Origin: Thermoanaerobaculia bacterium
GTDB taxonomy: Bacteria; Acidobacteriota; Thermoanaerobaculia; Multivoradales; UBA5704
NCBI GenBank assembly: GCA_035940855.1
Contig: DASZEM010000007.1
Location: 138,928 to 202,927 of the forward strand
DNA: 64,000 nucleotides
Direction of reading: 5' to 3'
A program made the translations under genes and the position numbers. Under the pieces are notes generated by a model. It was not told the DNA's origin, searched no databases, and saw nothing but the letters and a program-made list of their open reading frames with translations. Of the stretch, positions 20,304 through 59,699 are shown piece after piece. Every line of letters starts with the position of its first letter. The stretch's first letter is position 1.

Positions 20304-20497
20304 GTGGCTGGTCTCCTGGATCGGAGCGGACTGTAGCAGAGAAGAGAGGAGGGGGCTTTCCCATGAATTCGATAGTATGGGAATAAAGAGAGCAATGATA
20401 GTGGTACTACGGGCATAGGGTGTGCACCGAGGATCTCGGTGGGAGCCGATGCTCCCCGACTTCACGAAAAATCACCAGGAGAGAAGAGGAGAACATC

Positions 20498-24935: not shown

Positions 24936-25102
24936 GAAGTGAGCCGAGTTGGCGGAGGGCTGGGTTTCCCTTGCCGGCCCTCCTCCTTGGGAGGGTGAGG
25001 CCTTGGAAAAGGTCTTCCCGGCTTTCCTTCGGGGCGCCGTGAGGCGTCCCCTTTTTGTTCTTTGTCTATGGAACGTTTTTTGCTCGGAAATTCCGGCATC
25101 TC

Positions 25103-25954
25103 ATGCCCGCGAGATCAGGTGTCTCCGCGTCCGCTCTCCCCGTGACGATTCTGCGCCCGTCGCGGGGGTGGGTTTCGCTCGGCCTCGGGGAGCTTTGGGA
25201 ATACCGGGAGCTGCTGTACTTCCTGGTCTGGCGGGACGTCAAGGTCCGCTACAAGCAGACGGCTCTGGGCGCCGTGTGGGCGGTCCTCCAGCCCGTGGCC
25301 ACCATGGTGGTGTTCAGCCTGTTCTTCGGGCGCCTGGCCGGGGTGCCTTCGGACGGCGTGCCCTACCCGGTGTTCAGCCTGGCGGGACTAGTGCCGTGGA
25401 CGTTCTTCTCCCAGGGGCTCGTGCAGTCGGCCAACAGTCTGGTGGGCAGCCAGAACCTGCTCACCAAGGTGTACTTCCCCCGGCTGGCGATCCCCACCGC
25501 CACCGTGCTCTCCGGAGTGGTGGACTTCGCCCTCTCCTTCCTGGTGCTGATGGGAATCATGCTCTTCTATGGCATCGTGCCCACGGCACGGATCCTCTGG
25601 CTGGGGCCGCTCCTGATGCTCGCCTTCGCGACGGCCCTGGGGGTGGGGCTGTGGCTCTCGGCGCTCCACGTCAAATACCGGGACGTGCGCTACGTTGTCC
25701 CCTTCCTGGCCCAGCTCTGGCTCTTCGCCACCCCCATCGCCTATCCGAGCAGCCTCCTCCGGGAGCCGTGGCGCGCGCTCTACGGGCTCAATCCCATGGC
25801 CGGCGTGGTCGAGGGCTTCCGCTGGGCCCTGCTGGGGACGGACACGGCTCCCGGCCCCCTCCTCGCCGCCTCGGCCGCGACCTCCCTGGTCCTCCTGATC
25901 TCCGGCGCCTTCTACTTCCGGCGCATGGAGCGGACGTTCGCGGACTTCGTATGA
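25103..25954 (+). CDS. wzm: ABC-2 type polysaccharide/O-antigen export permease (Wzm-like)
   Basis: Six TM segments with the ABC2_membrane signature (WRDVKVRYKQTALGAVWAVLQP). Confidence 0.85.
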   Translation: MPARSGVSASALPVTILRPSRGWVSLGLGELWEYRELLYFLVWRDVKVRYKQTALGAVWAVLQPVATMVVFSLFFGRLAGVPSDGVPYPVFSLAGLVPWTFFSQGLVQSANSLVGSQNLLTKVYFPRLAIPTATVLSGVVDFALSFLVLMGIMLFYGIVPTARILWLGPLLMLAFATALGVGLWLSALHVKYRDVRYVVPFLAQLWLFATPIAYPSSLLREPWRALYGLNPMAGVVEGFRWALLGTDTAPGPLLAASAATSLVLLISGAFYFRRMERTFADFV

Positions 25955-27216
25955 GCGGGGCGATCCGGGCCGAGGGTCTCGGCAAGCTGTACCGCATCGG
26001 GCGACTGGAGTCCCGGTATGACACCTTAAGGGATGCCTTGGCGGGGTGGGGACGCCGCTTGGTGGAGCGGCGAAAAGGGTCTGGCGGGGAAGACACCTTG
26101 TGGGCGCTCCGGGACGTCTCCTTCGAGATCGGCCGGGGGGAGGCCGTGGGCCTGATCGGCGGCAACGGCGCGGGCAAGAGCACGCTGCTCAAGATCCTCT
26201 CCAGGATCACCGAGCCCACCACCGGCGAGGCCCGCATCGAGGGGCGGGTGGGCTCGCTTCTGGAGGTGGGCACGGGCTTCCACTCCGAGCTGAGCGGGCG
26301 GGAGAACGTCTATCTGGCCGGCGCCATCCTGGGCATGAAGCGGGCGGAGATCACCCGCAAGCTCGACGAGATCGTCGCCTTCGCGGAGGTCGAGCGGTTC
26401 CTCGACACGCCGGTCAAGCGCTACTCGAGCGGCATGTATCTGCGGCTGGCCTTCGCCGTGGCCGCCCACCTCGAGCCCGAGATCCTGCTGGTGGACGAGG
26501 TGCTGGCCGTGGGAGACGCCGCCTTCCAGAAGAAGTGCCTGGGGAAGATGGGCGACGTGGCCCGGCAGGGGCGCACGGTGCTCTTCGTCAGCCACAACAT
26601 GGTCGCCATCGAGGGGCTCTGCCAGCGGGTGCTCTGGCTGCGGGACGGCCGGGTGGCCGAGGACGGTCCCGCGGGGCGGGTGGTCTCCGAGTATCTCAAG
26701 ACCTCTTCGGCGCCCGCCCCCGAGCGGCTGTGGTGCGACCGGGACACGGCCCCCGGCAACGAGAAGGTGCGCCTCCGGAGCGCCCGCGTCCGGCCCGCGT
26801 CCGGCTCGCCGGGGGACCCCGTCACGGTACGGACGCCGCTCGTCTTCGAATTCGAGTACTGGAACCTCCAGCCCGGCGCGCGGCTGAATCTGAGCCTCCA
26901 TCTCTACAACGAGCAGGGGGTCCTGGTGTTCAACGCCGGCCCCCTCGATCCCCCTCCGTCCTTCCCGGCCGGCCTGTTCCGGGACGTCTGCCAAGTGCCG
27001 GGGGACTTCCTCAACGACGGGGTCCACAGCGTCGAGCTGATGGTGGTGCAGGACCTCGGCAAGGTGCTCTTCCGGATCGCCGACCTCCTGGTGTTCGACG
27101 TGCGCGACACGGTGGAGATGCGGGGCGAGTGGTACGGCAAGTGGCCCGGGGCGGTCCGTCCCCTGCTGCCCTGGAGCACCGAGGCGGTTGAGGTGCCGGT
27201 GGAGGAGCCCGCGTGA
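25951..27216 (+). CDS. wzt: ABC transporter ATP-binding protein Wzt-like with C-terminal carbohydrate-binding (Wzt_C) domain
   Basis: Walker A GGNGAGKST, signature YSSGMYLRL, Walker B LLVDEV. A ~150-aa C-terminal beta-sandwich extension. ATGA overlap with wzm. Confidence 0.9.
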   Translation: MSGAIRAEGLGKLYRIGRLESRYDTLRDALAGWGRRLVERRKGSGGEDTLWALRDVSFEIGRGEAVGLIGGNGAGKSTLLKILSRITEPTTGEARIEGRVGSLLEVGTGFHSELSGRENVYLAGAILGMKRAEITRKLDEIVAFAEVERFLDTPVKRYSSGMYLRLAFAVAAHLEPEILLVDEVLAVGDAAFQKKCLGKMGDVARQGRTVLFVSHNMVAIEGLCQRVLWLRDGRVAEDGPAGRVVSEYLKTSSAPAPERLWCDRDTAPGNEKVRLRSARVRPASGSPGDPVTVRTPLVFEFEYWNLQPGARLNLSLHLYNEQGVLVFNAGPLDPPPSFPAGLFRDVCQVPGDFLNDGVHSVELMVVQDLGKVLFRIADLLVFDVRDTVEMRGEWYGKWPGAVRPLLPWSTEAVEVPVEEPA

Positions 27217-28127
27217 CCGGCTATCTGCATCCCGGGTACGCGGCCTCGCTGGCCGGGCTCGGCAAGCCGCGCCTGCTGCCGGCGAGCGGCGGGTGGATCC
27301 TGGAGCGGGAGATTCCGGGCTCCTCCGGCCGGGACGCCATGGGCTGCTACCCGCTGTTCGCCTGCCAGTGCTGGGATCGGTTGGAAGAGGACCTCCGGGA
27401 CCTGGAGGGTCTGGTGAGCCTGGCGCTGGTGGCCGATCCGTTCGGCGACTATGACGAGCCTTTGCTGCGCCGCTGCTTCGACCGGGTCGTGCCGTTCAAG
27501 CGGCATTTCGTGGTCGACCTCGGCCGGCCGCTGGCGGAGATCGGCTCGAAGCACCACCGCTACTACCAGCGCCGGGCGTCCGCTGGCGTCGAGGTGGAGG
27601 AGTGTCCGTGCCCGGCCGAACACCTGGACGAGTGGACCGGCCTTTACGGCCACCTGGTCCGCCGGCACGGCCTCACGGGGATCCAGGCGTTCTCGCGCGC
27701 CGCCTTTGCCGCGCAGCTCTCGACGCCGGGCCTCGTCATGCTGCGGGCCGTCCATTTGGGCGAGACGGTGGGCATCCACCTCTGGTATTTGCAAGGCGAG
27801 GTCGCCTACAGCCATCTTCAGGCGAGCAGTGACCTCGGGTATCGCCTGATGGCCTCCTACGCGCTGTATGGCGCGGCCCTCCGCCTCCTGGCCCCGTGGG
27901 TCCGCTGGCTCGACCTGGGGGCCGGAGCGGGGATCGCCGAGCCGTCGCGCGGGCTCGAACAGTTCAAGGCGGGTTGGGCCACGGGGACCCGGACGGCCTG
28001 GTTCTGTGGCCGGGTGCTCGATCCGGAGCGGTACGCCACATTGTCTGCGGGCGCCGGGCGGGAGCCCGCGGACTACTTCCCGGCCTACCGGGCCGGTGAG
28101 ATGGAAGCGAGGTCTCCCGCGGCATGA
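27213..28127 (+). CDS. FemAB-family / BioF2-like GNAT-fold (Acetyltransf_6) transferase
   Basis: C-terminal GLEQFKAGWATG resembles the FemABX GLxxFKxxFG motif. 304 aa. ATGA-coupled to its paralog. Confidence 0.55.
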   Translation: MTGYLHPGYAASLAGLGKPRLLPASGGWILEREIPGSSGRDAMGCYPLFACQCWDRLEEDLRDLEGLVSLALVADPFGDYDEPLLRRCFDRVVPFKRHFVVDLGRPLAEIGSKHHRYYQRRASAGVEVEECPCPAEHLDEWTGLYGHLVRRHGLTGIQAFSRAAFAAQLSTPGLVMLRAVHLGETVGIHLWYLQGEVAYSHLQASSDLGYRLMASYALYGAALRLLAPWVRWLDLGAGAGIAEPSRGLEQFKAGWATGTRTAWFCGRVLDPERYATLSAGAGREPADYFPAYRAGEMEARSPAA

Positions 28128-29086
28128 TCCGCCAGGAACTGATCCCCCTCGCGGCGCCGGACGCTTGGAGAGAGGCGCTGCGGGACGTGCCGCACGAGGT
28201 CTGGCACACGTGGGAGCACTGCGCGGCCCTGGCCTTGACGGTCCCTCACGAGATCTTCCTGTACCGCTACGAGGCGGGTCCCGTCCGGGTCGTGGCCCCG
28301 CTCCTGGAGCGGCGGCTCGGCCCTCACGTGGACATCGCGACCCTGCCGGGTTTCGCGGGCTTCGTGGCCACGTCGGGCGATCCGGACTTCCCCCGCCATT
28401 GGGAGGGCTTCGCCCGGGACAGGGGCTATGTCTGCGGCTATCTCGGGCTCCATCCGTTCCTGGGCGATCCCCTGGATTTCGATCCCCTGGAGGGATCGAA
28501 CAGCGTCTACGTGCTCGACCTGCGGCGGGGGCCGGACGCGCTCTTCGCCGCCCTGGACCGCAACCGCAGGCGGCAACTGAAGGACTGGGAGCAGACCTCC
28601 GCCGGGCTCCTGCGCGACCGCGACGAGCTGACGGGCTTCCTGGTCCGCGAGTATCCGGCGTTCCTGGAGCGGATCGGTGCCTCCTCGGCATACCGGCGCT
28701 CCCCCGAGACCCTGGAGCGCCTGTGCAATCTCGAGAACGTCCTGCTGGTGGGGGCGGGGGAGGGCGGGGAGGTGGAGGCCGTCCACGTCTTCGCCTGGAC
28801 GCCCCACGCCGGCACCAGCCTGTTCAGCGTCTCCCGGCCGGAGGGGCGGCGGTACACGACGACGCTGCTCTGGCAGGGCGTTCAGGAGCTTGTCGCCCGC
28901 GGCGTGCCCCTGCTGAACCTCGGCGGGGGCGTCCGCGAGGACGACGGGGTCGCGCGGGCCAAGCAGCGGTTCGGAGCGGCGCGGCTGCCGCTGCGCTGCT
29001 CGAAACAGGTCTACCAGCCGGAGGTCTACACGGAGCTGTGCCGGGGCCATGCCGCGAACGGTTATTTCCCGGCCTACTGGTCCTAG
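28124..29086 (+). CDS. FemAB-family / BioF2-like GNAT-fold transferase (paralog of 27213..28127)
   Basis: GVARAKQRFGAARL motif and a shared C-terminal …YFPAYW tail with the upstream gene. 320 aa. Confidence 0.55.
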   Translation: MIRQELIPLAAPDAWREALRDVPHEVWHTWEHCAALALTVPHEIFLYRYEAGPVRVVAPLLERRLGPHVDIATLPGFAGFVATSGDPDFPRHWEGFARDRGYVCGYLGLHPFLGDPLDFDPLEGSNSVYVLDLRRGPDALFAALDRNRRRQLKDWEQTSAGLLRDRDELTGFLVREYPAFLERIGASSAYRRSPETLERLCNLENVLLVGAGEGGEVEAVHVFAWTPHAGTSLFSVSRPEGRRYTTTLLWQGVQELVARGVPLLNLGGGVREDDGVARAKQRFGAARLPLRCSKQVYQPEVYTELCRGHAANGYFPAYWS

Positions 29087-29098
29087 GAGAGGAGGAGG

Positions 29099-29800
29099 AT
29101 GTTCACCCGGTCCGCCCGCTACTACGACGCCCTCTACGGGTTCAAGGATTACGAGGCCGCGTCGCGCAAGCTCCACGCGCTGATCCAGAGCCGCAACCCC
29201 GCCGCCGAGACCCTCCTGGACCTCGCCTGCGGCACCGGCAGGCACCTGGAGCATCTGGGCGCGCACTACCGGGTGGAGGGGCTCGACCTCAACCCCGAGC
29301 TGCTGGAAACGGCGCGGCGGCGCTGTCCTGGAGTGCCGTTCCACCAAGGGGACATGACGGACTTCTCCCTCGGCCGCCGCTTCGACGCCGTCACCTGCCT
29401 GTTCAGCTCGGTCGCCTACGTCCGGACGGTGGAGAGCCTGCGCCGCACCGTCGCCAACATGGCCCGGCACCTGCGGCCCGGCGGCGTAGTGGTGCTGGAA
29501 CCCTGGTTCGGCCCGGACCGCTATTGGACGGGCACCATCACGGCCAACTCCGTGGACGAGCCCAACCTGAAGATCGCCTGGATGTATACCAGCGAGCGGG
29601 AGGGAGACCTGTCGGTCCTGGACATCCACTATCTGGTCGGCACGCCGGAAGGGATCGAGCACTTCACCGAGCGCCACGAGCTGGGCCTGTTCACGGACGA
29701 AGAGTACCTGGCGGCCTTCCGGGACGCGGGGCTCGATGTGACCCACGACCCCGAAGGCCTGTTCGGGCGCGGACTGTTCCTGGGGGTTCAGCCATCATGA
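29099..29800 (+). CDS. TylM1/DesVI-like NDP-amino-sugar N,N-dimethyltransferase (class I SAM-MTase)
   Basis: Colinear match to TylM1. [66 protein letters not shown]…GRGLFLG. Confidence 0.75.
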
Positions 29801-31023
29801 AGGCGCGCGTGCAGGACCTGGCCGTGTTCGGAGGGCCGCGGGCCTTCGAGGAGTCCCTGCCCGTGGGCCGGCCCAACATCGGCGACCGCGGCCGGCTGTT
29901 CGCCCGGCTCAACGACCTGCTCGACCGGCGCTGGCTGACCAACCGGGGTCCCTACGTCCAGGAGCTGGAGGAACGGATCGCGGCCCTGGCGGGCGTGCGG
30001 CACTGCATCGCGACCTGCAACGGCACGGTGGCGCTGGAGATCGCCGTCCGTGCCCTGGGTATGACCGGCGAGGTGATCGTGCCTTCCTTCACGTTCATCG
30101 CCACGGCGCACGCCCTGCAATGGCAGGAGATCACACCCGTCTTCTGCGACGTCGATCCTCGCACCCACAACCTCGACCCCCGGCACGTGGAGGCCCTCAT
30201 CACCCCGCGCACCACCGGCATCATCGGCGTCCACCTCTGGGGACGGCCGTGCGAGGTGGAGGCCCTGGAGGAGATCGCCCTCCGTCGTGAGCTCCGGCTC
30301 CTGTTCGACGCCGCGCACGCCTTCGGCTGCACCCGGGCGGGCCGCCCGGCCGGCTCCTTCGGCAACGCCGAGGTCTTCAGCTTCCACGCCACCAAGTTCC
30401 TCAACGCCTTCGAGGGCGGAGCGGTGGTCACCGGCGACGATGATCTCGCGGCGCGCATCCGGCTGATGAAGAACTTCGGCTTCGCCGACTACGACGAGGT
30501 GGTCTACGTCGGCACCAACGGCAAGATGGACGAGGCGTCCGCCGCCATGGCCCTGACCTCGCTCGAAAGCATGGAGGAGTTCATCGCGGCCAACCGGCGC
30601 AACTACCGGCGGTACCGCCAGGGGCTGGCGGGGGTGCCGGGCGTGCGCCTCCTCGAATACGACGAGACGGAGCGGAACAACTACCAGTACATCGTGCTGG
30701 AGGTCGACGAGGCGTCCGCCGGCCTGGGCCGCGACCTGCTCCAGCGGGTCCTCTGGGCCGAGAACGTCCTGGCGCGGCGCTACTTCTACCCCGGCTGCCA
30801 CCGCATGGAGCCCTACCGCTCCTATTTCCCCCACGCCGGCCTGCTGCTGCCGGTGACGGAGCGGCTCGTCCTGCGGGTGCTGACCCTGCCCACCGGCACG
30901 GCCGTCGACGAGGACCAGATCGCGGAGATCTGCGGCGTGATCCGGCTCGCCGTCGCCCATGGGAACGAAATCGCGGCGCGGCTGCGGGAAGCGGTGCCGC
31001 AGGGAGCGGGAGAAACCCGGTGA
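29797..31023 (+). CDS. DegT/DnrJ/EryC1/StrS-family PLP-dependent sugar aminotransferase
   Basis: [19 protein letters not shown] (PLP lysine). ATGA overlap with the upstream MTase. Confidence 0.85.
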
Positions 31024-31943
31024 AGGTCAGCGTCTCCATCACCGCTTACGCTCACGAGCGCTACATCGCCCAGTCGATCGAGAGCGTGCTCCAGCAGCGG
31101 ACCGCCTTCGACTTCGAGCTGATCGTGGGCGAGGACTGCTCCGGCGACCGCACCCGCGAGATCGTGCTCGACTACCAGCGGCGGTATCCCGAGAGGATCC
31201 GGACCGTGCTGCCGGAGGCGAACCTCGGGGGCGGCGGCAAGCGCCTCTTCGCCGAGACGCTGCGGCTCTGCCGGGGCCAGTACATCGCCATGATGGACGG
31301 CGACGACTACTGGACCTCGCCGGAGAAGCTCCGGATCCAGGCGGACTTCCTGGATGCCCACCCGGAGTGCTCGATGTGCTACCACGACGCGGAGAACGTC
31401 TACGAGGACGGTCTCGACGGTCCGCCGACCACGCGCTCGGCGGGGGCGAAGCCGTTCGCCGGCATGGCGGAGGTCCTCGAGCGCTGCTTCATCCCTGCCT
31501 GCTCGCCGATGTTCCGGCGCGAGGTGGTGGCCGAGCTCCCGCCCTGGTACCACGAGGTGCCGTGGGGGGACTGGCCCCTCTACGTCCTGGCCGCGCAGCG
31601 GGGACTCATCGGCTACCTCGACGCCGTGCTCGGCGCCTACCGCATCCACCGGGGCGGCGTGTGGTCGCGCCTCGCGGAGGCCGAGAAGATGGAGGGGGTG
31701 CTGGCCTTCTACCGGCACGCGGCCCCCCTTCTCGGGCGCCGGTACGCCAGGGCCATCCGCCACCGGTCCGGCCGCTGCAACTACCGTCTCGCCTGGCTCT
31801 ACAGCCAGGAGGGCGAGACCGCCAAAGCGAGGTCCTGCGCATGGAAGGCCATCCGCCAGCTCCCCCTTCGAAGGCATCATCCGTACGGCCACCTGCTCCG
31901 GATGCTCCTCCGGCCGTCATGGCTCCCGGCGAAGGCTTCCTAG
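31020..31943 (+). CDS. GT2-family glycosyltransferase (GT-A)
   Basis: VSVSITAYAHERYIAQSIESVLQQ…ELIVGEDCSGD…MDGDD (DXD). Confidence 0.85.
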   Translation: MKVSVSITAYAHERYIAQSIESVLQQRTAFDFELIVGEDCSGDRTREIVLDYQRRYPERIRTVLPEANLGGGGKRLFAETLRLCRGQYIAMMDGDDYWTSPEKLRIQADFLDAHPECSMCYHDAENVYEDGLDGPPTTRSAGAKPFAGMAEVLERCFIPACSPMFRREVVAELPPWYHEVPWGDWPLYVLAAQRGLIGYLDAVLGAYRIHRGGVWSRLAEAEKMEGVLAFYRHAAPLLGRRYARAIRHRSGRCNYRLAWLYSQEGETAKARSCAWKAIRQLPLRRHHPYGHLLRMLLRPSWLPAKAS

Positions 31944-32959
31944 CCTGGCGGCGCCGCGCCCGCAAGTGGCGGGGCCGCTGGGAGCGCGCGCTCGAGCGCC
32001 ACGTGCGGCCGGCGCTCCTGCCGCCGCGGGTGCGACACGTGGCGGGTCCCCGTGAGGTCCGCTACGGCGAGGACGAGGTGCTCGCCATCTCCATCGTCCG
32101 CAACGGCGCCGTCCACGTGCGCTCCTTCCTGGAGCATCACTTCGGCCTGGGCGTGCGGCACGTCGTGCTCCTGGACAACGGCTCGACCGACGGCACGGTC
32201 GACCTGGCGAGAGGCTACGGGAACGTCACGATCCTGCGCACGGACTGCCCCTACGGCGTCTACGAGAACGTCATGAAGAGGTACCTCGCCCGCCGGTTCT
32301 CGCGCGGCCGCTGGAACCTCTGCGTGGACATCGACGAGCGCTTCGACTACCCGTCTTCGGACGTCCTCCCCCTGCCGTCCTTCCTCGCCTATCTGGACCG
32401 CCGCGGCTTCACGGCGGTCGTGGCCCAGATGCTGGACATGTTCCCGGACGGTCCCATCCTCGAAGCCGGGGGAGGGGCGGCCGGCCTTGAGGAGCGCCAC
32501 CGTTTCTACGACATCTCCTCGGTCGGCCGTCTCGATTACCGCTGGGGGCTCCTGTCGAGCCCGGCGGTCAAGGAGCACCGGGGCGGCATCCGCATCGCCG
32601 CGTTCCAGACCAACAACTGTCTCTCCAAGGCGGCCCTGGTGCGGGTGGACGAGGAGATCGAGCTGTTCGTGGACTGGCACCACGTGGCCAACGCCCGCAT
32701 CGCGGATGTGACCTGCCTGCTGCTGCACTACCCCTTCGTCGAGACCTTCCGCGCCAAGCTGGAGGACGCGGTGAGCGCCCGGCGCTACGGGAAATGGACC
32801 CCGCAGTACGAGCGCTACTGGCGGGCGCTGCGCGAGAATCCCGGCCTCTCCTTCATGGGACCGGCCGCCCGCGAGCTCACCGGCACCCGGGAGCTGGTGG
32901 AACAGGGGTTCCTGGTGGTCTCGGAGGATTTCCAGCGCTGGGTGGCGGAGCATGACTGA
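31919..32959 (+). CDS. GT2-like glycosyltransferase-fold protein
   Basis: VVLLDNGSTDGT nucleotide-binding motif and D-x-D (DIDERFD). The start is uncertain; it overlaps the upstream gene by 25 nt. Confidence 0.55.
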   Translation: MAPGEGFLAWRRRARKWRGRWERALERHVRPALLPPRVRHVAGPREVRYGEDEVLAISIVRNGAVHVRSFLEHHFGLGVRHVVLLDNGSTDGTVDLARGYGNVTILRTDCPYGVYENVMKRYLARRFSRGRWNLCVDIDERFDYPSSDVLPLPSFLAYLDRRGFTAVVAQMLDMFPDGPILEAGGGAAGLEERHRFYDISSVGRLDYRWGLLSSPAVKEHRGGIRIAAFQTNNCLSKAALVRVDEEIELFVDWHHVANARIADVTCLLLHYPFVETFRAKLEDAVSARRYGKWTPQYERYWRALRENPGLSFMGPAARELTGTRELVEQGFLVVSEDFQRWVAEHD

Positions 32960-33845
32960 GCCCCGCATCTCCGTCTGCATCGTCTGCCGCAACGAGGCGG
33001 ACCGGCTCGGCCCCTGCCTGGAGTCCGTGGCCTGGGCGGACGAGATCCTGGTGATGGACCTCGACAGCACCGACGGCTCCGCCGAGCTGGCCATGTCCCA
33101 CGGGGCGCGCGTCCTCCGCCGGGCGCCCGTGCCCATCGTCGAGCTGGTCCGCAACGAGGTGGCTGCGGAGGCGGCGGGGGAGTGGATCCTCGTCCTCGAC
33201 CCGGACGAGCGGATCACCCCCGGCCTCGCCCGGGAGCTGCGTGCCCTCGCCGGGCGGGACGACCTCGACGCCGTGGTCATCCCGCGGATGAACTACGATC
33301 TGGGCTACCCCCCGAGCAACCCCTACGAGCGCTACGAGCCCCAGCTCCGGATGTACCGCCGGTCGCGGGTGGCCTGGCCCACCATCCCCAACAAACTCCC
33401 CCAGGTCCCCGAGGAGCGCCGCCATCAGATCCCCGGGCGGGACGAGCTGGTGATGGTCCACGACCGCAGCCGCAACGTACCCGAGATCCTGGACCGGAGC
33501 CTCCGCTACGCGCCGCTTCAGGCCCAGTCCATGATCGACCGTGGAGAGGTCTTCACGGCCCGTTCCATGCTGGCCTCGCTCGGCAGCCGGGCATACCGCC
33601 AGCTCGTGCTGGGAAAGGCCTGGCGGGACGGCGTACCCGGCCTGCTCCGCGTGGGGATCCTCGTGGGCTTCCACTTCTACGTCTGGACGGCCTTCTGGCA
33701 GCTCTCGGGGGCGCGGCGGACGCCGGAGGACGACCGCTTCGTGCGGCGGCTGGGGCGGTTCGTCGAGGGCGCCCGCCGCGTCTGGCGCGCCGGCACCGCG
33801 CCCTGGCGGTGGGGCAAGCGGCTGCTGCGCGCGGCGAGGCGTTAG
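32952..33845 (+). CDS. GT2-family glycosyltransferase (WaaE/KdtX-like)
   Basis: ISVCIVCRNEADRLGPCLESV-WADEILVMDLDSTDGS. Confidence 0.8.
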   Translation: MTEPRISVCIVCRNEADRLGPCLESVAWADEILVMDLDSTDGSAELAMSHGARVLRRAPVPIVELVRNEVAAEAAGEWILVLDPDERITPGLARELRALAGRDDLDAVVIPRMNYDLGYPPSNPYERYEPQLRMYRRSRVAWPTIPNKLPQVPEERRHQIPGRDELVMVHDRSRNVPEILDRSLRYAPLQAQSMIDRGEVFTARSMLASLGSRAYRQLVLGKAWRDGVPGLLRVGILVGFHFYVWTAFWQLSGARRTPEDDRFVRRLGRFVEGARRVWRAGTAPWRWGKRLLRAARR

Positions 33846-34102: not shown

Positions 34103-36235
34103 TCAAGGCTGTTCTCCGGGCGTCCGGAGCCGCAGGCCATGGAGGAACCCTCTGGCCGTGCCCGCGAGCAGGAGGCCCTCTTCGGCGAGCGCTTCCCGCT
34201 GCCCGCGCCGGAGCGCCGAGGCGGCGAGGCGCATGCGCAGGCCCAGCCACCCTGCCAGGACCCGCAGGGCGTAGAGGTCCCCTTGGCGGAGCCACAGGGC
34301 GCAGCAGGCTCCCATGCCGTGGCCGTACATCGGCCGCCGCGCCCGGCGCTCGGCCCGGGTCTGCCGCTCGTGGAAGACCAGAGACTCCGGCTCGTACCGG
34401 ATGCGCGCCCCGGCCCGCAGCAGCCGGTAGAAGAGGTCCATGTCCACCCCGCCGCGGCCCGGCGAGCCCGGCCCCAGGCGCTCGTCGTTGCCGGCGACGC
34501 GCTCGAACCAGCTCTTGCGGAGGGCGAAGTTGTTGCCGCTGCCCACCTCCCAGGGGACGGTCCGGCCCCGGAAGTCGCGCCGCTCCGGGCGCGTGCGCGA
34601 GGAGACGGGGCAGACCCTCTCGCCCCGCGGCTCCAGGGGGAGCACGCGGCCGGTGACGGCATCGAAGCCGAGGTCCGCGATGAAGGCCCGGGCGATGGCC
34701 GCGAGCCAGTCGCGGTCCGGGATGCAGTCGTCGTCCGTCACGGCCACGATGGACCGGCTCGCCCGCGAGACCGCCTCGTTCTGGGCCGTGCCCAGGCCCC
34801 GCGCCTCCTGCCGGACGTAGACGATGGGGAACGGTCCGCCCTTCCGCTCCTCGACCACGGCCCGCGTCCGGTCGTCGCGGCTCTGATCGACCACGACCAC
34901 CTCTGCCGGCAGGAGGGAGCCCGCCGCCAGCGCGTCCAGGCAGCGGGCCAGCTCGTCCGGCCGGTCGAGGGTGGAGATGGCGACGGAGATCCCTGCCTCG
35001 CGCAGGAGGAGGGAGTCGTAGAGGTCCTCATACCTCCGCACAGTCCGCTCCCAGCCCAGGTTCTCCACGGCCCACGCCCGCGCCCGGGTCCCCAGGGCCA
35101 CCCGCCGGTCCCGTTCCTCGAGCAGGCCGGCGATAGCCGCCGCGAAATCCCCGTCCGTCTCCGCCAGCACGGCCTCCTCCCCGTCCCGCGCGCCGATCCC
35201 CTCGACGGCCAGCGGGGAGGCCACTACGGCCTTGCCGGCCGCCAGGGCCTCCAGGATCTTGACGCGCATCCCGCCGCCCTTGTGGAGGGGGGCGGCCACC
35301 ACGGCGGCCCGGTTCAGATAGGGACGCAGATCGGGGACGAAGCCGGTGACCTCGATCCCCGGTCCTTCGAGACCCTCCGGCGGCGCTTCGCCCACCAGGG
35401 TCAGGCGGGCGTCGGGCCGGCGCTCGCGGACGCGGGAGAAGATCGAGCGCGCCAGCCGCGTGGCGGCGTCCACGTTCGGCGGATGATGGAAGTTGCCATG
35501 GAAGAGGATCTCCGGCGCCTCGCCCGCGGGATCGAGGGCCGTCTCCGGCAACTCCGTGCCCAGGGGGATGGTGACGATGGGGACGCCGTCCGCGTACGGC
35601 GCCAGGGCCGCCCGGTCCCGGTTCGTGAACACGACCATGGCGTCCGCCAGGGACGCCACCCGCCGCTCGAAGCGCTCCCAGGCCAGGAGGTCGAGCCGGT
35701 CGCGCAGCCGCTCGAGACCCCGCGAGGACCGCCAAAGCTCGCGGGCCGCCCCCACCCCGGGCTCGTACTGGTTGAGCACCCGCCGTGCCGGAAAGCCGTG
35801 GAGACCCTCGAGATACTGGCCCATCACGTGGTACTCGGCCTGCACCACGTCCGGCCGCCAGGTCGGGACGAGCTCCCGCAGGCGCGCCGCGAGCGCTGGC
35901 ACCCGGCTGTGCGTGGCCCAGGTGGGTCGGAAGGAGAAGAGAGCCGCCGCGGCCCGGGCCTGCTTGTGGAGGCGGCGCCTCAGGCCCACGGCCCGGTTGC
36001 GGCCGAAGCGGGGAAACTCCTCGACGAGATCGAGCCGGGCCCGCAGCGCCTCGTCGATCCCCGGCTCGCCGTCGCCCCGCAGGTAGAGGAGGCCTACCCG
36101 GTTCCGCTGCGCGAGACCCGACAGCAGGCCGGCCATGGCCCGGCCGCCGCCGTGGCCCGCGTCGAGCCGCGGCGCGAAAGGGGCCAGGAAGAGGAGCCGT
36201 CGGGTCTCGGCGATGTCATCGCCAGCCGGCGTCAT
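34103..36235 (-). CDS. bifunctional glycosyltransferase: N-terminal GT4 (GT-B) + C-terminal GT2 (GT-A)
   Basis: GT4 E-x7-E region (KGGGMRVKILEALAAGKAVVAS). Then ISVAISTLDRPDELARCLDAL…VVVDQSRDD…TDDD for the GT2 part. Confidence 0.8.
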   Translation of the reverse strand: MTPAGDDIAETRRLLFLAPFAPRLDAGHGGGRAMAGLLSGLAQRNRVGLLYLRGDGEPGIDEALRARLDLVEEFPRFGRNRAVGLRRRLHKQARAAAALFSFRPTWATHSRVPALAARLRELVPTWRPDVVQAEYHVMGQYLEGLHGFPARRVLNQYEPGVGAARELWRSSRGLERLRDRLDLLAWERFERRVASLADAMVVFTNRDRAALAPYADGVPIVTIPLGTELPETALDPAGEAPEILFHGNFHHPPNVDAATRLARSIFSRVRERRPDARLTLVGEAPPEGLEGPGIEVTGFVPDLRPYLNRAAVVAAPLHKGGGMRVKILEALAAGKAVVASPLAVEGIGARDGEEAVLAETDGDFAAAIAGLLEERDRRVALGTRARAWAVENLGWERTVRRYEDLYDSLLLREAGISVAISTLDRPDELARCLDALAAGSLLPAEVVVVDQSRDDRTRAVVEERKGGPFPIVYVRQEARGLGTAQNEAVSRASRSIVAVTDDDCIPDRDWLAAIARAFIADLGFDAVTGRVLPLEPRGERVCPVSSRTRPERRDFRGRTVPWEVGSGNNFALRKSWFERVAGNDERLGPGSPGRGGVDMDLFYRLLRAGARIRYEPESLVFHERQTRAERRARRPMYGHGMGACCALWLRQGDLYALRVLAGWLGLRMRLAASALRRGQREALAEEGLLLAGTARGFLHGLRLRTPGEQP

Positions 36236-37790
36236 TCCAGGCTCCGAACAGCTCGTCCGCTCGCTGGGCGAGGGTGGCCACGTAGGCGGTCTCGCGCCGT
36301 CCCGATCCGGGGCGCAGGGCCAGCTCCACCCAGGCCGCCACCAGCAGGAGCGGCACGAACCGGCGGTCGATCCGCAGGGTCCGGCAGTACTCCGCCACAG
36401 CCTGGCGCACGGCCTCCCCGGCCTCGCCGCCGCCCCGGGCGGTCCACACCTCGCGCAGGACGCGGAGCCGGGTGCCGTCGTCGAACGCCCGCAGGGCCAG
36501 CTCGCTCCAGTGGGTGGCGAAGTGGAGGAGATCGCAGAGCGCCGGCCCGGGCCGCGCCCCTTCCCAGTCGATCACCCGCAGCCCCCCCTCGCCCCGCAGC
36601 AGGTTCCACGGCGTGAAGTCCCGGTGCTGGCAGACGATGGGGAGCCCCGCCGTTTCCGCCAGCTCGCCGCTCCGCCGCCGGACGGCGGCCGTGAGCCCCG
36701 CGAGGTCCATCCCCTCCACCGATCCCTGAAGCTCGGTGAGAGGCTCTTCGAGCCATTCCTCCGCCTCCCGCTCGTCCCACTCCACGCGGCGGACCTCCGT
36801 CCGCCCATGGAAACGGGCCAGCCAGTCCGCGGCCTCGCGCAGATCCTCGATTTTCTTGCCCAGAGGCTCACCCCAGCTCCCGGCCCTTTGCGCCAGGGGA
36901 CGGCCGGCGGCGTAGCCCTCGAGGGCCAGGGAGAGGCGGCCGGCCCGGTAGAGGCCCCGGGGCGTGGGCAGGGCATCGCGGTTTCCCGGCTCCAGACGCC
37001 CCCGCAGGTGGGCCAGCAAGGCCTGCTCCTGCTCCGTCTTCTCCTTGAGCGCCGGCAGCCGGGGTACCTTGAGCACCGCCTCGGGCGAGGAGCCGCCGGG
37101 CGCGAAGGGGAGCGCCACCACGCGGTCCGGGCCGTGGGCCAGGAGCAGGGGACGGAGCCCCCGCATCGAGGAGGGGAGTGCGGGGTGATCGAGGATCGTG
37201 GCCCGCCCCTTCGGATCCTCCGTCCCGGCCACGACCGTCAGGGCATAGCGCCAGGGGAGCGCGGCCTCGCCCAGCAGGCGCAGGCCCACCCGGCGCAGCG
37301 TCTTCCCCAATGTCCAGTCCGCGAGGAGGGTCTCGGTGTACCAGCGCAGGGCCCCCGGCGGATCGAGGGGGACGTACGCCTCCGGCCGCTCGAACCCGGG
37401 CAGCACGGCATAGAGGCCCGTCGTCCGCAGGCGGTCCCCCCGGGGCATCTGCCGCCGCGACGCGAGCTCGAACCAGCCGCAGCCACCGGGGGCCAGGCAG
37501 CGCCCTTCCTCTTCCGGGTCCACGCTCGCGGTGTCGTCGCCGTGAAAGACGAACAGGGCGTCCGCCGATCCCTCGGGCTGAATTCCCGTGCTCACGCGGC
37601 GGGCGAGGCCGGCCCCGGCGGCCGCCTCGGCGAGACGGGGAGGGCCCCCCAGGATCACGAGGTGATCGAAGACGCCGCCGGGCGGTGGAGGGAGGAGGAA
37701 GCGGGGGTCCAGGCGCCGGAGGCCCTCGCCTCCCCGGCCCTCGTCTCCCCACGCGAGAACGGCACTCTCTCGAGAGGGACGAGCGTTCAC
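36216..37790 (-). CDS. aminoglycoside-phosphotransferase-like (APH/choline-kinase fold) kinase
   Basis: Brenner motif HRDFTPWNLL and a downstream D-W-E metal-binding region. Start assigned to a GTG overlapping the upstream stop (GTGA); a later ATG is also possible. Confidence 0.55.
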   Translation of the reverse strand: MNARPSRESAVLAWGDEGRGGEGLRRLDPRFLLPPPPGGVFDHLVILGGPPRLAEAAAGAGLARRVSTGIQPEGSADALFVFHGDDTASVDPEEEGRCLAPGGCGWFELASRRQMPRGDRLRTTGLYAVLPGFERPEAYVPLDPPGALRWYTETLLADWTLGKTLRRVGLRLLGEAALPWRYALTVVAGTEDPKGRATILDHPALPSSMRGLRPLLLAHGPDRVVALPFAPGGSSPEAVLKVPRLPALKEKTEQEQALLAHLRGRLEPGNRDALPTPRGLYRAGRLSLALEGYAAGRPLAQRAGSWGEPLGKKIEDLREAADWLARFHGRTEVRRVEWDEREAEEWLEEPLTELQGSVEGMDLAGLTAAVRRRSGELAETAGLPIVCQHRDFTPWNLLRGEGGLRVIDWEGARPGPALCDLLHFATHWSELALRAFDDGTRLRVLREVWTARGGGEAGEAVRQAVAEYCRTLRIDRRFVPLLLVAAWVELALRPGSGRRETAYVATLAQRADELFGAWNDAGWR

Positions 37791-38716
37791 CGCACCGGCC
37801 TTTCCGCGATCACCCGCCGCCACACCGCGAGGTCCCTGCCCAGCGCCCGCCGCCGCTCCGGATCGGTCGCCCAGAGCGACTTCACCGTGTCCCGCACCAC
37901 GTGCTCGGCCATGGCGAGCGTCACGGCCCAGCGCAGGCGCCGCAGCGTCCCCCGCGGCGAGTGGCGGCGGTGGAAATGGGCGAGGCTCTGGAACAGCCGC
38001 ACGGCCATCTCCGGCCGCATCCGGCCCGTGCTCGCCCCCTCCTCGTGGACCACGGCCGCCTCGGGCGTGAAGCGGATCTCCCAACCCGACCTCCGCAGCC
38101 GCCAGCAGAAGTCCATCTCCTCGGCGTAGAGGAAGTAGGACTCGTCGAACCCGCCCACGGCCTCGAACGCCTCGCGGCGGATCGCCATTGCCGCGCCCTT
38201 GACCCAGGGCACCTCCCCGGCCGGGATGGAGGAGTAGACCGGACGGAAACGCCGAGAATAGCGGACGATCCGGTTCAGGTACGTATTCATGGCGAGCACG
38301 TCGAACGGCGTGAGGAAGGGGAAGCAGGAGGGCTGCCGCGTGCCGTCCGGGTTCAGCAGGAGGGGACCCGCCACGGCGGCCCGGGAATGCCCTTCGAGCT
38401 CCCGTCCCAGCGCCTCCAAGGCCCCGGGCCGCACCCGCGTGTCGCTGTTCAGGAGCAGGATGAACGGCGACCGGCAGGCGGCGATCCCTTGATTGACGGC
38501 CGCGCCGTAGCCCGGGTTGTCCCCGTTCTCCACGAGTCGCGCCTCGGGAAAGCCGGCGCGCACCATGCCGGCGCTGCCGTCCGTCGAGGCATTGTCCACC
38601 ACCACCACCTCGCCCGGCCCCTCGGCCCACACCGTCTCCAGGCACGCCCGCAGGTGCTCGCGGGTCTCGTGGTTGACGATCACGGCGGCAAAATCGCGGA
38701 CATCGCGCGGCGTCAC
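37787..38716 (-). CDS. GT2-family glycosyltransferase (rhamnosyltransferase-like)
   Basis: AAVIVNHETREHLRACLETV…VVVVDNASTDGS…DxD. GTG start with a GAGGAGG RBS. Stop/start overlaps of GTGA type on both sides. Confidence 0.8.
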   Translation of the reverse strand: MTPRDVRDFAAVIVNHETREHLRACLETVWAEGPGEVVVVDNASTDGSAGMVRAGFPEARLVENGDNPGYGAAVNQGIAACRSPFILLLNSDTRVRPGALEALGRELEGHSRAAVAGPLLLNPDGTRQPSCFPFLTPFDVLAMNTYLNRIVRYSRRFRPVYSSIPAGEVPWVKGAAMAIRREAFEAVGGFDESYFLYAEEMDFCWRLRRSGWEIRFTPEAAVVHEEGASTGRMRPEMAVRLFQSLAHFHRRHSPRGTLRRLRWAVTLAMAEHVVRDTVKSLWATDPERRRALGRDLAVWRRVIAERPVR

Positions 38717-39627
38717 GTCGGCCTCCTCAGCGCGCCGCGCCAGACCGCGAGGTCCTCCGCCAGCCGCGAGCGCCTCCCTGAGTCGCGGGAGAAGGCCAGC
38801 CGCAGCGAGTCGCGCCCCAGCCGGACGAGCATGGCGGCGCCGATCATCCCCTCCAGCGCCAGGACCCGGGGCCGGGAGTAGTGGCGGCGGTAGAACAGCT
38901 TCGAGCTGGCCACCCGCCGTACCGCCATTTCCGGCCGCCTTTGTCCCGTGCTGGCCCCGCCCACGTGCGTCACGGCCGTGACGGGGGCGAAGTGGACCTC
39001 CCAACCGGCGGCGCTCAGCCGGTAGCAGAGGTCGATCTCCTCCGAGTACATGAAGAAGGCGGGATCGAACCCGCCGATTTCCTCGAACGCCTCACGGCGG
39101 ATGGCGAGGGCCGCCCCCAGCACCCAGGGCACCACCCGCGGCCGGTCGTGGGGGGAGTGGCTGAGGAGCCAGCGGTCCCGGAGGGCGGGCACGCGGGCCA
39201 GCCAGCGGCCGAGCGGCGTCTTCTCGACCATCAAATGGAGCGTCCCGATGTAAGGAAAGCAGGAGACCTGGAGCGTGCCGTCCGGGTTCACCAGCCGCGG
39301 ACCGGCCACGGCGGCCCGGGGATGGCGGGCCAGGTACCCGGCCAGAGCCCCGAGCGCTCCCGGCGAGACGCGCGTGTCCGCGTTGAGCAGGAGGACGAAC
39401 GGGGAGGTGCAGAGGGAGACGGCACGGTTCGCCGCCGCGCCGAAGCCGGGGTTCTCCCCGTCCGCGAGCAGCGTCACCTCGGGGAAGTCCCGGCGCACCA
39501 TCTCGGCGCTGCCGTCCGCCGAGCCGGTGTCGGCCACCACCACCTCGTGCATCCCTTCGGACCGCAGGCTCTCCAGGCAGGCCCGCAGGTGCTCGCGGGT
39601 GTCATGGTTGACGACGACGGCCGCCAT
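38713..39627 (-). CDS. GT2-family glycosyltransferase (paralog of 37787..38716)
   Basis: MAAVVVNHDTREHLRACLESL…VVVADTGSADGS. ~50% identical to the downstream paralog. Confidence 0.8.
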   Translation of the reverse strand: MAAVVVNHDTREHLRACLESLRSEGMHEVVVADTGSADGSAEMVRRDFPEVTLLADGENPGFGAAANRAVSLCTSPFVLLLNADTRVSPGALGALAGYLARHPRAAVAGPRLVNPDGTLQVSCFPYIGTLHLMVEKTPLGRWLARVPALRDRWLLSHSPHDRPRVVPWVLGAALAIRREAFEEIGGFDPAFFMYSEEIDLCYRLSAAGWEVHFAPVTAVTHVGGASTGQRRPEMAVRRVASSKLFYRRHYSRPRVLALEGMIGAAMLVRLGRDSLRLAFSRDSGRRSRLAEDLAVWRGALRRPT

Positions 39628-39643
39628 TTTGGGAGATAGGGCT

Positions 39644-40828
39644 TCAGGTCGCGCCACCGTTCACTTCCTGGTACAGCTCGTTGACCGAGCGCACGAACTC
39701 GAACCACCCGAACCGCTCCTCGGCCCGCGCCCGCGCCGCCGCGGCCAGGCGGTCCGCCAGCGGCCGGTCCCGCAGCACGCGCACGATGCCGCTCGCCAGC
39801 TCCGGCGACCAGGCCCCCGTGAGCAGCGCGCTCTCGTCGTCCAGCACCGAACGGTGGGCCGGGATGTCGGTCGCGACGATCGGCTTGCCCGCCGCCAGGT
39901 AGTCGAAGATTTTAAGCGGCAGGTTGTCCCCGTAGGCCCGGGGCGACACCAGCACGTCAGCCAGAGCTAGAAAGCCGGGGATCCTCTCCCGCGGCTGGCG
40001 CTTCACCACCCGCAGCGCGCCCTGCCGCACCAGGTCCGAATGGGCGCGGGACACGGTGGTGCCCCCGGTCTCGTCCGCCCCCACCAGCACGAAAGCCACG
40101 CCGGGCACCTCGGCCCGCACGTGGGGAACGGCCGCGAGCAGCTCGGGCAACCCCTGGTAGGCCTCGAACGTGCCACTGTAGAGCACCACCGGCTGATCCG
40201 GGCGCAGCCCGAGCTCGCCCCGCAACGCCTCCGCCTCCCCGGGAGGAGACGACGGCAGTGCGCTCGCGAACCGCCACTCCCGCAGCCGCGCGTCCGGCGC
40301 CAGGGCGCGCACCCGCTGGGCGAGGCCCGTGCTGCTCACGATCGAGTCGGCGCGCCGCAGCAGCCAGCGCTCCATGCGGATCAGCGCCGACTGCGCCATC
40401 CCGCTCCGGAAGGCCAGGTGCTGGGCGAGCTGCTCCGGCAGGCTCGACTGCATGTCGTAGATCACCGGCACCCGGAACCGCTGGCCCAGCACCACGCAGG
40501 GGAACGCGGCCTCCTCGATGGCGTGGATGCACGAGTAGCCTCCCTCCGACAGGCGCCGGACCAGCTCCGAGATCAGCGTCGCGTCGAGCAGCAACTTGGC
40601 GAGCGAGAAGCCGATCGGCACCTGCCGCACCCGGAACGGGTTGGAAGACCGGAAGTACCGCACCCGCGGGATCTCGATCGACTGTCCCAGCGGGTAGGTG
40701 ACCACGTCCACCTCGTAGGCGAGCTGGGACAGCGCCAGGAGGAGCTGGCGCACCGCGATCGGCGTCCCACGGTCTTCGTAGAACGGCTGCGGAGCAACGA
40801 CGAGCACCCGAGATCTCGGCAGAGTCAA
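39644..40828 (-). CDS. GT4-family glycosyltransferase (GT-B)
   Basis: RVLVVAPQPF…GG…; E-x7-E region (LKIFDYLAAGKPIVATD). The track's start is a TTG at 40981. A shorter TTG/GTG start near 40828 (…LTLPRSRVLVVAP) is more plausible but uncertain. Confidence 0.7.
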   Translation of the reverse strand: MTLPRSRVLVVAPQPFYEDRGTPIAVRQLLLALSQLAYEVDVVTYPLGQSIEIPRVRYFRSSNPFRVRQVPIGFSLAKLLLDATLISELVRRLSEGGYSCIHAIEEAAFPCVVLGQRFRVPVIYDMQSSLPEQLAQHLAFRSGMAQSALIRMERWLLRRADSIVSSTGLAQRVRALAPDARLREWRFASALPSSPPGEAEALRGELGLRPDQPVVLYSGTFEAYQGLPELLAAVPHVRAEVPGVAFVLVGADETGGTTVSRAHSDLVRQGALRVVKRQPRERIPGFLALADVLVSPRAYGDNLPLKIFDYLAAGKPIVATDIPAHRSVLDDESALLTGAWSPELASGIVRVLRDRPLADRLAAAARARAEERFGWFEFVRSVNELYQEVNGGAT

Positions 40829-41034
40829 CCTTCCTTGTCTGCGATCTAAGCCGTAGACGGACGAGAAGCCAGGACAAAAGCAGCAGAAAGAGTGCCATCG
40901 ATGAAAACCAATGGGCGCATGCGCGGTCTCTCCTTTTCCCAGAGGACAGGGCCAGGAAGACGGTGCTCTCTTCCCAGCCAATGCGTTAAACGCTATATCT
41001 ATTTGTAAGGCCAGAGGAGTCCATGGAAAAAGGT

Positions 41035-46044: not shown

Positions 46045-46115
46045 GGCGGCGTATGGTAGCATCTGCCGCCATTCGACGCGTGACAGGCTTTTTTCCTGAA
46101 GAGGATCTTTCATTC

Positions 46116-59646: not shown

Positions 59647-59699
59647 AGGCCTTCGGCGGCTGGAATACAATTCTTTTTTCTTTGTCGGCAGCAGACCTG

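Follow-up and report, generated by a model that had tools for sequence, protein, structure and literature searches.

FemX, FemA and FemB (Weissella viridescens, S. aureus) are aminoacyl-tRNA (aa-tRNA)-dependent aminoacyl transferases that act on peptidoglycan precursors, and amino acids in amide linkage to amino sugars (glycyl, N-acetylglycyl, alanyl, N-acetylseryl and other groups) are common, serotype-defining substituents of O antigens and other surface glycans. Lys305 of FemX takes part in substrate-assisted aminoacyl transfer, and VlmA, DhpH/K, PacB and Orf11 are further Fem-like aa-tRNA-dependent enzymes; with Gly-tRNA, Orf11 turns streptothrisamine, an amino sugar, into glycylthricin (PMC12945691). 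Exchange of vimA between P. gingivalis and T. forsythia changes the amino acid amide-linked to the linking sugar of lipopolysaccharide (LPS) from Ser to Gly (PMC7468200). The type-B flagellin locus of C. difficile encodes a FemAB-like protein, an ATP-grasp protein and an FdtB-like aminotransferase, and a peptidylamido sugar terminates its glycan (PMC5207246), while amide-linked Gly, N-acetyl-Gly (O121), L-Ala, N-acetyl-L-Ser and allo-Thr occur in E. coli O antigens (PMC7685785). In the literature that we found, no enzyme is established as installing amide-linked amino acids on 6-deoxy-amino sugars. Here we describe two adjacent genes, ORF1 and ORF2 (locus tags VHC97_04630/04635), in a 64,000-nt stretch (the window; ~70% G+C) of contig DASZEM010000007.1 from the metagenome-assembled genome of an uncultured Thermoanaerobaculia bacterium (Acidobacteriota); all coordinates are positions within the window.

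On balance, ORF1 and ORF2 are probably cytoplasmic FemX-type aminoacyl transferases that tailor a 4-amino-4,6-dideoxyhexose for a surface glycan exported by an ATP-binding cassette (ABC) transporter, with ORF1 acting first, ORF2 extending its product and N-methylation following. ORF1 (27213..28127, + strand; GTG start; 304 aa) is the proposed first aminoacyl transferase for the 4-amino sugar, and ORF2 (28124..29086, + strand; ATG start; 320 aa) is a second FemX-like double-GNAT protein and the proposed second-residue (chain-extending) transferase. A preliminary description of this DNA had reported two tandem, ATGA-coupled ORFs of ~310 aa, and the sequence does read as an ATGA start/stop overlap between the two genes (28124..28127, +). 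Both are coding-type in composition (G+C at third codon positions, GC3, 0.89 for ORF1 and 0.91 for ORF2; at second positions, GC2, ~0.5). Long antisense ORFs at 26904-28691 and 28085-29746 (- strand) fail the GC3/GC2 test and are not genes.

AlphaFold (AF2) models of the two proteins have pLDDT values of 90.6 (ORF1) and 94.2 (ORF2). The top 29 Protein Data Bank (PDB) matches of the ORF1 model in Foldseek comprise FemX (TM 0.70), Sba18/Sbb17, aminoacyl-phosphatidylglycerol synthase domains of MprF, FemA and one unannotated relative, all of them aa-tRNA-dependent or near to such enzymes in fold, with coenzyme A (CoA)-dependent (acetyl-CoA) tandem GNATs reaching a TM of only ~0.4; the ORF2 model matches Sbb17/Sba18 best, followed by FemX. 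The Sbb17/Sba18 PDB entries are described as ‘aminoacyl-tRNA-dependent peptide synthases’ and were crystallised with the amino sugar streptothrisamine. On these models, a double-GNAT fold with two GNAT domains per chain, closest to the FemX/FemA type, is well supported for both ORF1 and ORF2, in agreement with the fold that had been anticipated for them.

The C-terminal FK/KQRFG-type motifs that had first suggested a Fem relationship are real. In ORF1 the motif is G247-L-E-Q-F251-K252-A-G-W (27951..27977, +; K252 codon at 27966-27968), and in ORF2 it is A279-K280-Q-R-F-G284 (28958..28975, +; K280 codon at 28961-28963). Alignment of 43 ORF1-family proteins shows G247, L248, K252, G254 and W255 to be invariant and F251 to be kept in 42; among 49 aligned ORF2-family proteins, K280 is present in all, F283 in 48 and G284 in 45. 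A profile built from the 43 ORF1 homologs recovers Weissella FemX (E=1.6e-4) with coverage of domain 2, placing F251-K252 on F304-K305, and the expected sequence relationship to Fem enzymes thereby emerges for the ORF1 family; searched singly with phmmer against the PDB, ORF1 matched nothing and ORF2 gave noise only. Because the lysine is invariant (43/43 and 49/49) and is aligned to F304-K305 of FemX, the motifs are not chance look-alikes, and K252 is well supported by the alignment as the counterpart of the catalytic Lys305. Domain 2 of ORF1 opens with a basic helix, S112-K-H-H-R-Y-Y-Q-R-R-A122 (27546..27578, +), which is conserved across the family (SKHHRYYARKA; H115 in 41/43, R116 in 42/43, R/K at 120 and 121) and in the profile alignment falls on the basic stretch SKTKSKIKR of FemX. 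The ORF2 family likewise begins domain 2 with a basic helix, RNRRRQLR, in which RNRRRQL is nearly invariant. The CoA motif Q/R-x-x-G-x-G/A (motif A) is not conserved in either family alignment, where it occurs sporadically (≤7/49) and at non-homologous positions. The donor would be aa-tRNA, for which the evidence is indirect: a conserved CoA motif is lacking, the basic helix is kept and the nearest structures all use aa-tRNA.

The two proteins had been called paralogs, which is true only in a remote sense: the family profiles are related (hhalign probability 98.9%, E=1.6e-17, 256 columns), and pairwise comparison gives a weak match (BLASTP, 26% identity over 163 aa, E=1e-3). ORF1 homologs form >2,300 clusters at 90% identity, many of which reach PF13480. 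ORF2 homologs are less numerous: a word index lists 129, and exhaustive searching at E≤1e-30 brings ~404 representative clusters. Precomputed PF13480/PF02388 matches exist for many ORF1 homologs and for a few ORF2 homologs, the Tropicibacter ORF1-like protein scores 34 bits, and homologs are publicly named ‘GNAT family N-acetyltransferase’.

The gene neighbourhoods of the ORF1 family point to an amino sugar. A scan of one genome per species yielded 326 relatives of ORF1, and counts are from the best 80 loci, in which ORFs within 7 kb of the ORF1-family gene were clustered and annotated and DegT genes were counted within 10 kb. The family spans >10 phyla, its members coming among others from Acidobacteriota, Rubrobacteraceae, Planctomycetota, Chloroflexota, Verrucomicrobiota, Nitrospirota, Geobacter and relatives, Cyanobacteria and Alphaproteobacteria. 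A DegT/DesI aminotransferase lies within 10 kb in 62 of the 80 loci (49 of them in the DesI-ortholog cluster), and all of these partners score best on C4-aminotransferase models, a linkage that argues for an amino-sugar acceptor; the C4 amine of dTDP (deoxythymidine diphosphate)-4-amino-4,6-dideoxyglucose would be the acceptor of ORF1. The association with DesI-type sugar amination is clear and conserved, and both families are mostly mis-annotated. The export ATPase gene wzt is present in 24/80 loci, an ORF2-like gene in only 5/80 and a TylM1-like methyltransferase gene in only 2/80, both of which also carry ORF2.

The gene directly 3' of ORF1 is usually a variable tailoring (‘cap’) enzyme: a NeuD/PglB/VioB-family left-handed beta-helix (LbH) acetyltransferase (29 loci), a small S-adenosylmethionine (SAM) methyltransferase (10 loci), a PseH/RimJ-like GNAT (6 loci), a short-chain dehydrogenase/reductase (SDR) accompanied by an AMP-ligase (6-7 loci) or ORF2 itself (5 loci). 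On the NeuD/PglB/VioB model the LbH partner reaches 150 bits, and it lies closest to PglD/PerB; the GNAT partner resembles PseH. Gene maps show the order ORF1>GNAT>DesI as against ORF1>ORF2>GNAT>DesI, and a plasmid record of Tropicibacter oceani shows methyltransferase - ORF1-like - DegT. In ‘bare’ ORF1>DesI loci (e.g., L077, L081 and L051), ORF1 is the sole acyltransferase-like gene adjoining DesI, and annotation of these loci revealed no other N-modifying enzyme, the remaining products being glycosyltransferases, a sulfotransferase, a deacetylase and the like; such loci would argue for the amino-sugar amine as acceptor. One locus (L054) encodes a PylC-like ATP-grasp protein between ORF1 and DesI.

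Other recurrent genes accompany the ORF1 family. A conserved protein of ~313 aa with a marginal Pfam match to GH130 (mannoside phosphorylase-like) is encoded in 24/80 loci (L013, L015, L021, L026 and others); its gene lies ~2.2 kb 3' of ORF1, with the cap enzyme on one side and DesI on the other, and is absent from the window. Directly 5' of ORF1, nine loci (L019, L020, L037, L045, L084 and others) that also have a normal DesI ortholog encode a second pyridoxal phosphate (PLP) enzyme, a DegT-like protein of ~349 aa that is divergent (37 bits in Pfam) and matches no NCBIfam model. Two loci (L031 and L048) hold two ORF1-family genes each, in tandem in L048, an arrangement that differs from the ORF1+ORF2 pair.

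The distribution of ORF2 is that of an add-on. Among 80 metagenome loci, many of them short, the ORF2-family gene is directly adjacent to a TylM1-like methyltransferase gene in 47, and is accompanied by DegT/DesI in 42 and by an ORF1-like gene in 34; where at least 3 kb of flank is available on both sides (n=15), an ORF1-like gene and DegT are each present in 13. The 59 informative loci contain an ORF1-like gene only (34), a WbqC-family gene only (16) or neither (9), and never both, with WbqC mostly directly 5' of the ORF2-like gene; a plasmid record of Hymenobacter tibetensis likewise reads DegT - WbqC - ORF2-like - TylM1-like methyltransferase - GT2 - wzt - wzm. A search for WbqC across all 80 ORF1 loci and the window found none. 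The dependence of ORF2 on an upstream ORF1-like or WbqC gene is therefore well supported, and because the two are mutually exclusive upstream of ORF2 they appear to be two alternative ways of providing a single upstream step. WbqC (PF08889), named for the O-antigen cluster of E. coli O121, occupies exactly the place of ORF1 upstream of the ORF2-like gene, but belongs to an unrelated family, with no Pfam overlap with ORF1 and no PDB relative found. An obligate ORF1-ORF2 heterodimer was considered and rejected: in ~94% of the loci of its family ORF1 stands alone, and WbqC can take its place beside ORF2.

WbqC-family genes have been described in an operon with a prolyl-tRNA synthetase (ProRS) paralog, an unusual tRNA, LmbE, GT4 and MurG, without a function being assigned to WbqC by the authors (PMC10404621). 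Its place in this operon may connect WbqC to aa-tRNA. In Streptomyces-type genomes the operon tRNA is an anticodon-mutant tRNA(Pro), which was interpreted as a mistranslation device (PMC10404621, Fig. 2); a system for the tRNA-dependent aminoacylation of sugars is another possible reading of the operon. Geodermatophilus sabuli, a cultured actinomycete, may carry three Fem-like genes in one glycan locus (L004). There, a divergent ORF1-like gene lies between wzt and DesI in two reading frames (14377-15164, -), is called as 121 aa only (PF13480 23.7 bits) and may be frameshifted, and a 279-aa protein encoded after the ORF2-like gene (11005-11844, +) contains the Fem-type motif ‘...LLRFKASMAT’ and gives a weak, motif-level match to the ORF1 profile.

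In the window, the pair lies in a genuine ABC-transporter-type glycan locus, as Pfam annotation of the window proteins shows and as the preliminary description had stated. Upstream are wzm (25055..25954, +; PF01061 ABC2_membrane 69.5 bits; NCBIfam Wzm/KpsM-like), for an ABC-2 type polysaccharide export permease, and wzt (25951..27216, +; PF00005 (ABC_tran) 73.9 bits; ~190 bits on galactan/teichoic-acid export ATPase models), for the export ATPase, the stop of which shares GTGA with the GTG start of ORF1 (27213-27216). Downstream, again as had been described, are a SAM-dependent NDP (nucleoside diphosphate)-amino-sugar N-methyltransferase of the DesVI/TylM1 type (29099..29800, +; DesVI 3bxo 4e-57, TylM1 3pfg 2.6e-56, CalS10 3e-49) and a DesI-like PLP aminotransferase of the DegT family (29797..31023, +, with the start taken from the public gene call; DesI 2po3 3e-136; TIGR04427 550 bits against a cutoff of 650). 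Three GT2-type glycosyltransferases follow: one directly 3' of DesI (31020..31943, +; PF00535 72.6 bits), which is a candidate transferase for the decorated sugar and has homologs in 23/80 loci of the ORF1 family and in 42/80 of the ORF2 family, a second (31919..32959, +; Glyco_tranf_2_4 57.5 bits), and a third that ends the operon (32952..33845, +; PF00535 59.1 bits). The nine genes from wzm (25055) to the third GT2 (33845) overlap or are separated by ≤12 nt, which suggests a single operon. Farther downstream, an NDP-hexose 4,6-dehydratase (46053..47096, +; GDP_Man_Dehyd/Epimerase 197/182 bits) and a sugar-1-phosphate nucleotidylyltransferase (47118..47831, +; NTP_transferase 112 bits) likely supply NDP-4-keto-6-deoxyhexose.

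From these genes a pathway may be proposed. The nucleotidyltransferase and 4,6-dehydratase (46-48 kb) would generate NDP- (probably dTDP-) 4-keto-6-deoxyglucose, which the DesI-like enzyme would convert to dTDP-4-amino-4,6-dideoxyglucose, a step well supported by homology. ORF1, via Lys252, would then move an amino acid from aa-tRNA to the C4 amine, ORF2 would join a second amino acid to the new alpha-amine in the manner of FemA/FemB after FemX, and the DesVI/TylM1-like enzyme would methylate the terminal amine. The adjacent GT2 would install the decorated sugar, and Wzm/Wzt would export the glycan. Since aa-tRNA is confined to the cytoplasm, the reaction would take place on the nucleotide sugar or a lipid-linked glycan, before export, and two successive residues fit the nature of ORF2 as an add-on that needs an upstream ORF1-like or WbqC gene. 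In most other genomes, ORF1 is found without ORF2, and its product would be capped by an acetyltransferase or a different methyltransferase, or left uncapped. The Wzt C-terminal domain recognises the chain-terminating residue in other systems. The wzt product of the window has a C-terminal extension of ~170 aa with a weak, sub-threshold Wzt_C match (16.6 bits), and by analogy the decorated amino sugar might be a terminal cap that this extension reads.

The earlier interpretation, in which two enzymes decorate an amino sugar of the exported glycan with aminoacyl groups, is supported as far as computation goes; as a prediction of function we hold it with slightly better than even confidence. Several observations weigh against it. 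No tRNA genes were found within the window and no aminoacyl-tRNA synthetase gene nearby, and NCBIfam models return nothing at E≤0.1 for ORF1 or ORF2, TIGR03019 (PEP-CTERM-associated FemAB) included, nor for their plasmid-borne relatives. The recurrent cap enzymes are also akin to modifiers of the sugar C4/C3 amine itself (NeuD/PglB/VioB, PseH-like GNAT, DesVI/TylM1), and DesI with a VioB-like or TylM1-like partner could, by analogy, yield N-acetyl- or N,N-dimethyl-viosamine with no amino acid involved. The neighbours might then modify the sugar amine directly, giving dTDP-4-N,N-dimethylamino-4,6-dideoxyglucose here (DesI + TylM1-like) and Qui4NAc elsewhere (DesI + VioB-like), with ORF1 and ORF2 aminoacylating a sugar hydroxyl (an ester, as with MprF and VlmA) or another residue of an undecaprenyl-linked glycan. 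We regard this as a minority possibility that deserves to be kept in view: the methyltransferase is about as close to DesVI, TylM1 and CalS10 as true NDP-amino-sugar N-methyltransferases are to each other, the closest characterised relatives of the cap enzymes are VioB, PglD, PerB, PseH, DesVI and TylM1, and MprF-type relatives with the same fold make esters. However, it leaves unexplained why ORF1 tracks the aminotransferase so closely across loci (62/80), and it accords poorly with loci that pair ORF1 with DesI and no other N-modifying enzyme, with the reliance of ORF2 on an upstream ORF1-like or WbqC gene, and with the restriction of the TylM1-like methyltransferase among ORF1 loci to those carrying ORF2; moreover, Fem-fold enzymes with known sugar acceptors (Orf11/Sbb17, VimA) form amides on sugar amines.

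Also adverse to an aminoacyl-transferase role is the Pfam result: both ORFs touch Acetyltransf_6 (PF13480), as had been expected, but below its gathering threshold (18.2 bits for ORF1 and 19.0 bits for ORF2 against 22), and FemAB (PF02388) matched neither in the Pfam scan. As the only family touched belongs to the GNAT clan, and the public name of the homologs is that of an N-acetyltransferase, the two proteins could be N-acyltransferases that move acetyl or another acyl group from acyl-CoA or an acyl carrier to the amino sugar. The double-GNAT fold does include acyl-CoA users, such as N-myristoyltransferase, and the AMP-ligase and SDR of some ORF1 loci are possible makers of an acyl donor; we nevertheless consider this unlikely given the donor evidence above. 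That ORF1 alone is catalytic, with ORF2 a degenerate paralog that serves as a non-catalytic partner or specificity subunit, is improbable. In its favour, ORF2 of the window has Ala where FemX has Phe304, at a position that varies in the family (F in 28, S in 11 and A in 9 of 49), and the ORF2 family profile gives only noise against the PDB, with no solved Fem protein matched, both of which count against the proposed role of ORF2. Yet Lys280, Phe283, Gly284 and the RNRRRQL helix are nearly invariant over ~400 representative clusters, indicating a conserved active site, the ORF2 model is complete and very confident, and the presence of ORF2 with WbqC in place of ORF1 speaks against an obligate ORF1 subunit. 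Least probable of all is that ORF1 and ORF2 are ordinary FemABX peptidoglycan-branching or cell-wall/lipid aminoacyl transferases that lie in a glycan cluster by chance. FemX of Weissella, a UDP-MurNAc-pentapeptide alanyltransferase, is the closest solved relative of the ORF1 family at the sequence level; a peptidoglycan role is rejected on genomic context, as linkage to DesI, GT2 and wzm/wzt is kept in Acidobacteriota, Planctomycetota, Chloroflexota, Cyanobacteria, Desulfuromonadia, Actinomycetota and others, start/stop overlaps point to one operon with wzt and the sugar genes, PF02388 is unmatched, and Pfam annotation of the window proteins shows no mur/fts genes in the window.

Elsewhere in the window, the genes directly 5' of wzm (20420-23047 and 23217-24935, +) encode a pair of large paralogs that look secreted and combine BNR/Asp-box repeats with fn3 or PPC domains, and other ORF1 loci also have big surface proteins upstream (Ig-like/DUF11, ~850 aa; beta-helix, ~330 aa); these may be glycosylated targets or cell-surface partners of the glycan. 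Convergent glycan genes (34103..40981, -; Pfam) encode a GT1-GT2 fusion, an APH-like kinase, two GT2 and one GT4. The APH-family (aminoglycoside-phosphotransferase-like) kinase (36216-37790, -) lies among the glycosyltransferases, and by comparison with WbdD-type kinases its role may be chain termination or phosphorylation of a sugar; the Geodermatophilus locus has such a kinase too (L003/L004, 2018-2974). A 1,243-aa methyltransferase-GT2-GT1 fusion (48684-52415, -) and a second DegT aminotransferase, ArnB/PseC-like (59460-60800, +), suggest that the window encodes a further glycan locus or the synthesis of a further amino sugar.

More tentatively, the ORF1 family may represent a widespread tRNA-dependent class that puts amino acids on the 4-amino-6-deoxyhexoses of surface glycans, with WbqC a functional analogue and with ORF2 and the TylM1-like methyltransferase an optional second module, in which case this organism would build an N-methylated dipeptidyl-viosamine. 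Such a product would be a short peptide built on a nucleotide sugar without the ribosome. The gene arrangements have an apparent modular ‘starter / extender / cap’ organisation, with apparent non-homologous replacement of the starter by WbqC. Candidates for the aminoacylation of O antigens and other surface glycans are provided by a Fem-like family tied to a DesI-type aminotransferase in hundreds of genomes and >10 phyla, by another Fem-like family with the behaviour of a chain extender, and by the unrelated WbqC as an apparent first-step analogue. If the proposal holds, the ORF1 family would account for the amide-linked amino acids that O antigens have long been known to carry, and the widespread annotation ‘GNAT family N-acetyltransferase / hypothetical protein’ would be corrected.

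Compared with the described systems, ORF1 and ORF2 share only 14-19% identity with FemX, FemA and FemB and do not match the Pfam FemAB model. The Fem genes also have a cell-wall context, whereas ORF1 and ORF2 belong to a glycan operon with a sugar aminotransferase and an ABC exporter; the acceptor is therefore presumably an NDP- or lipid-linked amino sugar, not a peptide-stem lysine. The likeness to Orf11, Sba18 and Sbb17 of streptothricin-type pathways is structural only, as phmmer and profile searches of PDB sequences gave no Sbb17/Sba18 match to ORF1 or ORF2; those enzymes act on a free secondary-metabolite intermediate in Streptomyces, in contrast to the cell-surface polysaccharide operon, present in many phyla, to which ORF1 and ORF2 belong. 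VimA and the C. difficile locus are likened here by description only. The C. difficile locus serves protein O-glycosylation in a Firmicute, and its FemAB-like gene could not be mutated, but its gene content, with FemAB-like CDR20291_0244, ATP-grasp 0245 and FdtB-like aminotransferase 0247, resembles that of ORF1 loci (cf. L054, with its ATP-grasp gene). In the case of VimA the acceptor, which the deacetylase VimE exposes, is a 2,3-diamino uronic acid and not a DesI product; nonetheless, VimA resembles the proposed role of ORF1 as an acyltransferase-like protein of an LPS-type glycan (Wbp/Vim pathway) that picks Ser or Gly for a sugar amine. Fem-type aminoacylation of amino sugars is already known from Orf11/Sbb17 and implied for VimA, and is not categorically new; if our reading is correct, ORF1 and ORF2 would take tRNA-dependent peptide-bond formation outside the ribosome, known from peptidoglycan, lipids and antibiotics, into the nucleotide-sugar tailoring of exported polysaccharides.

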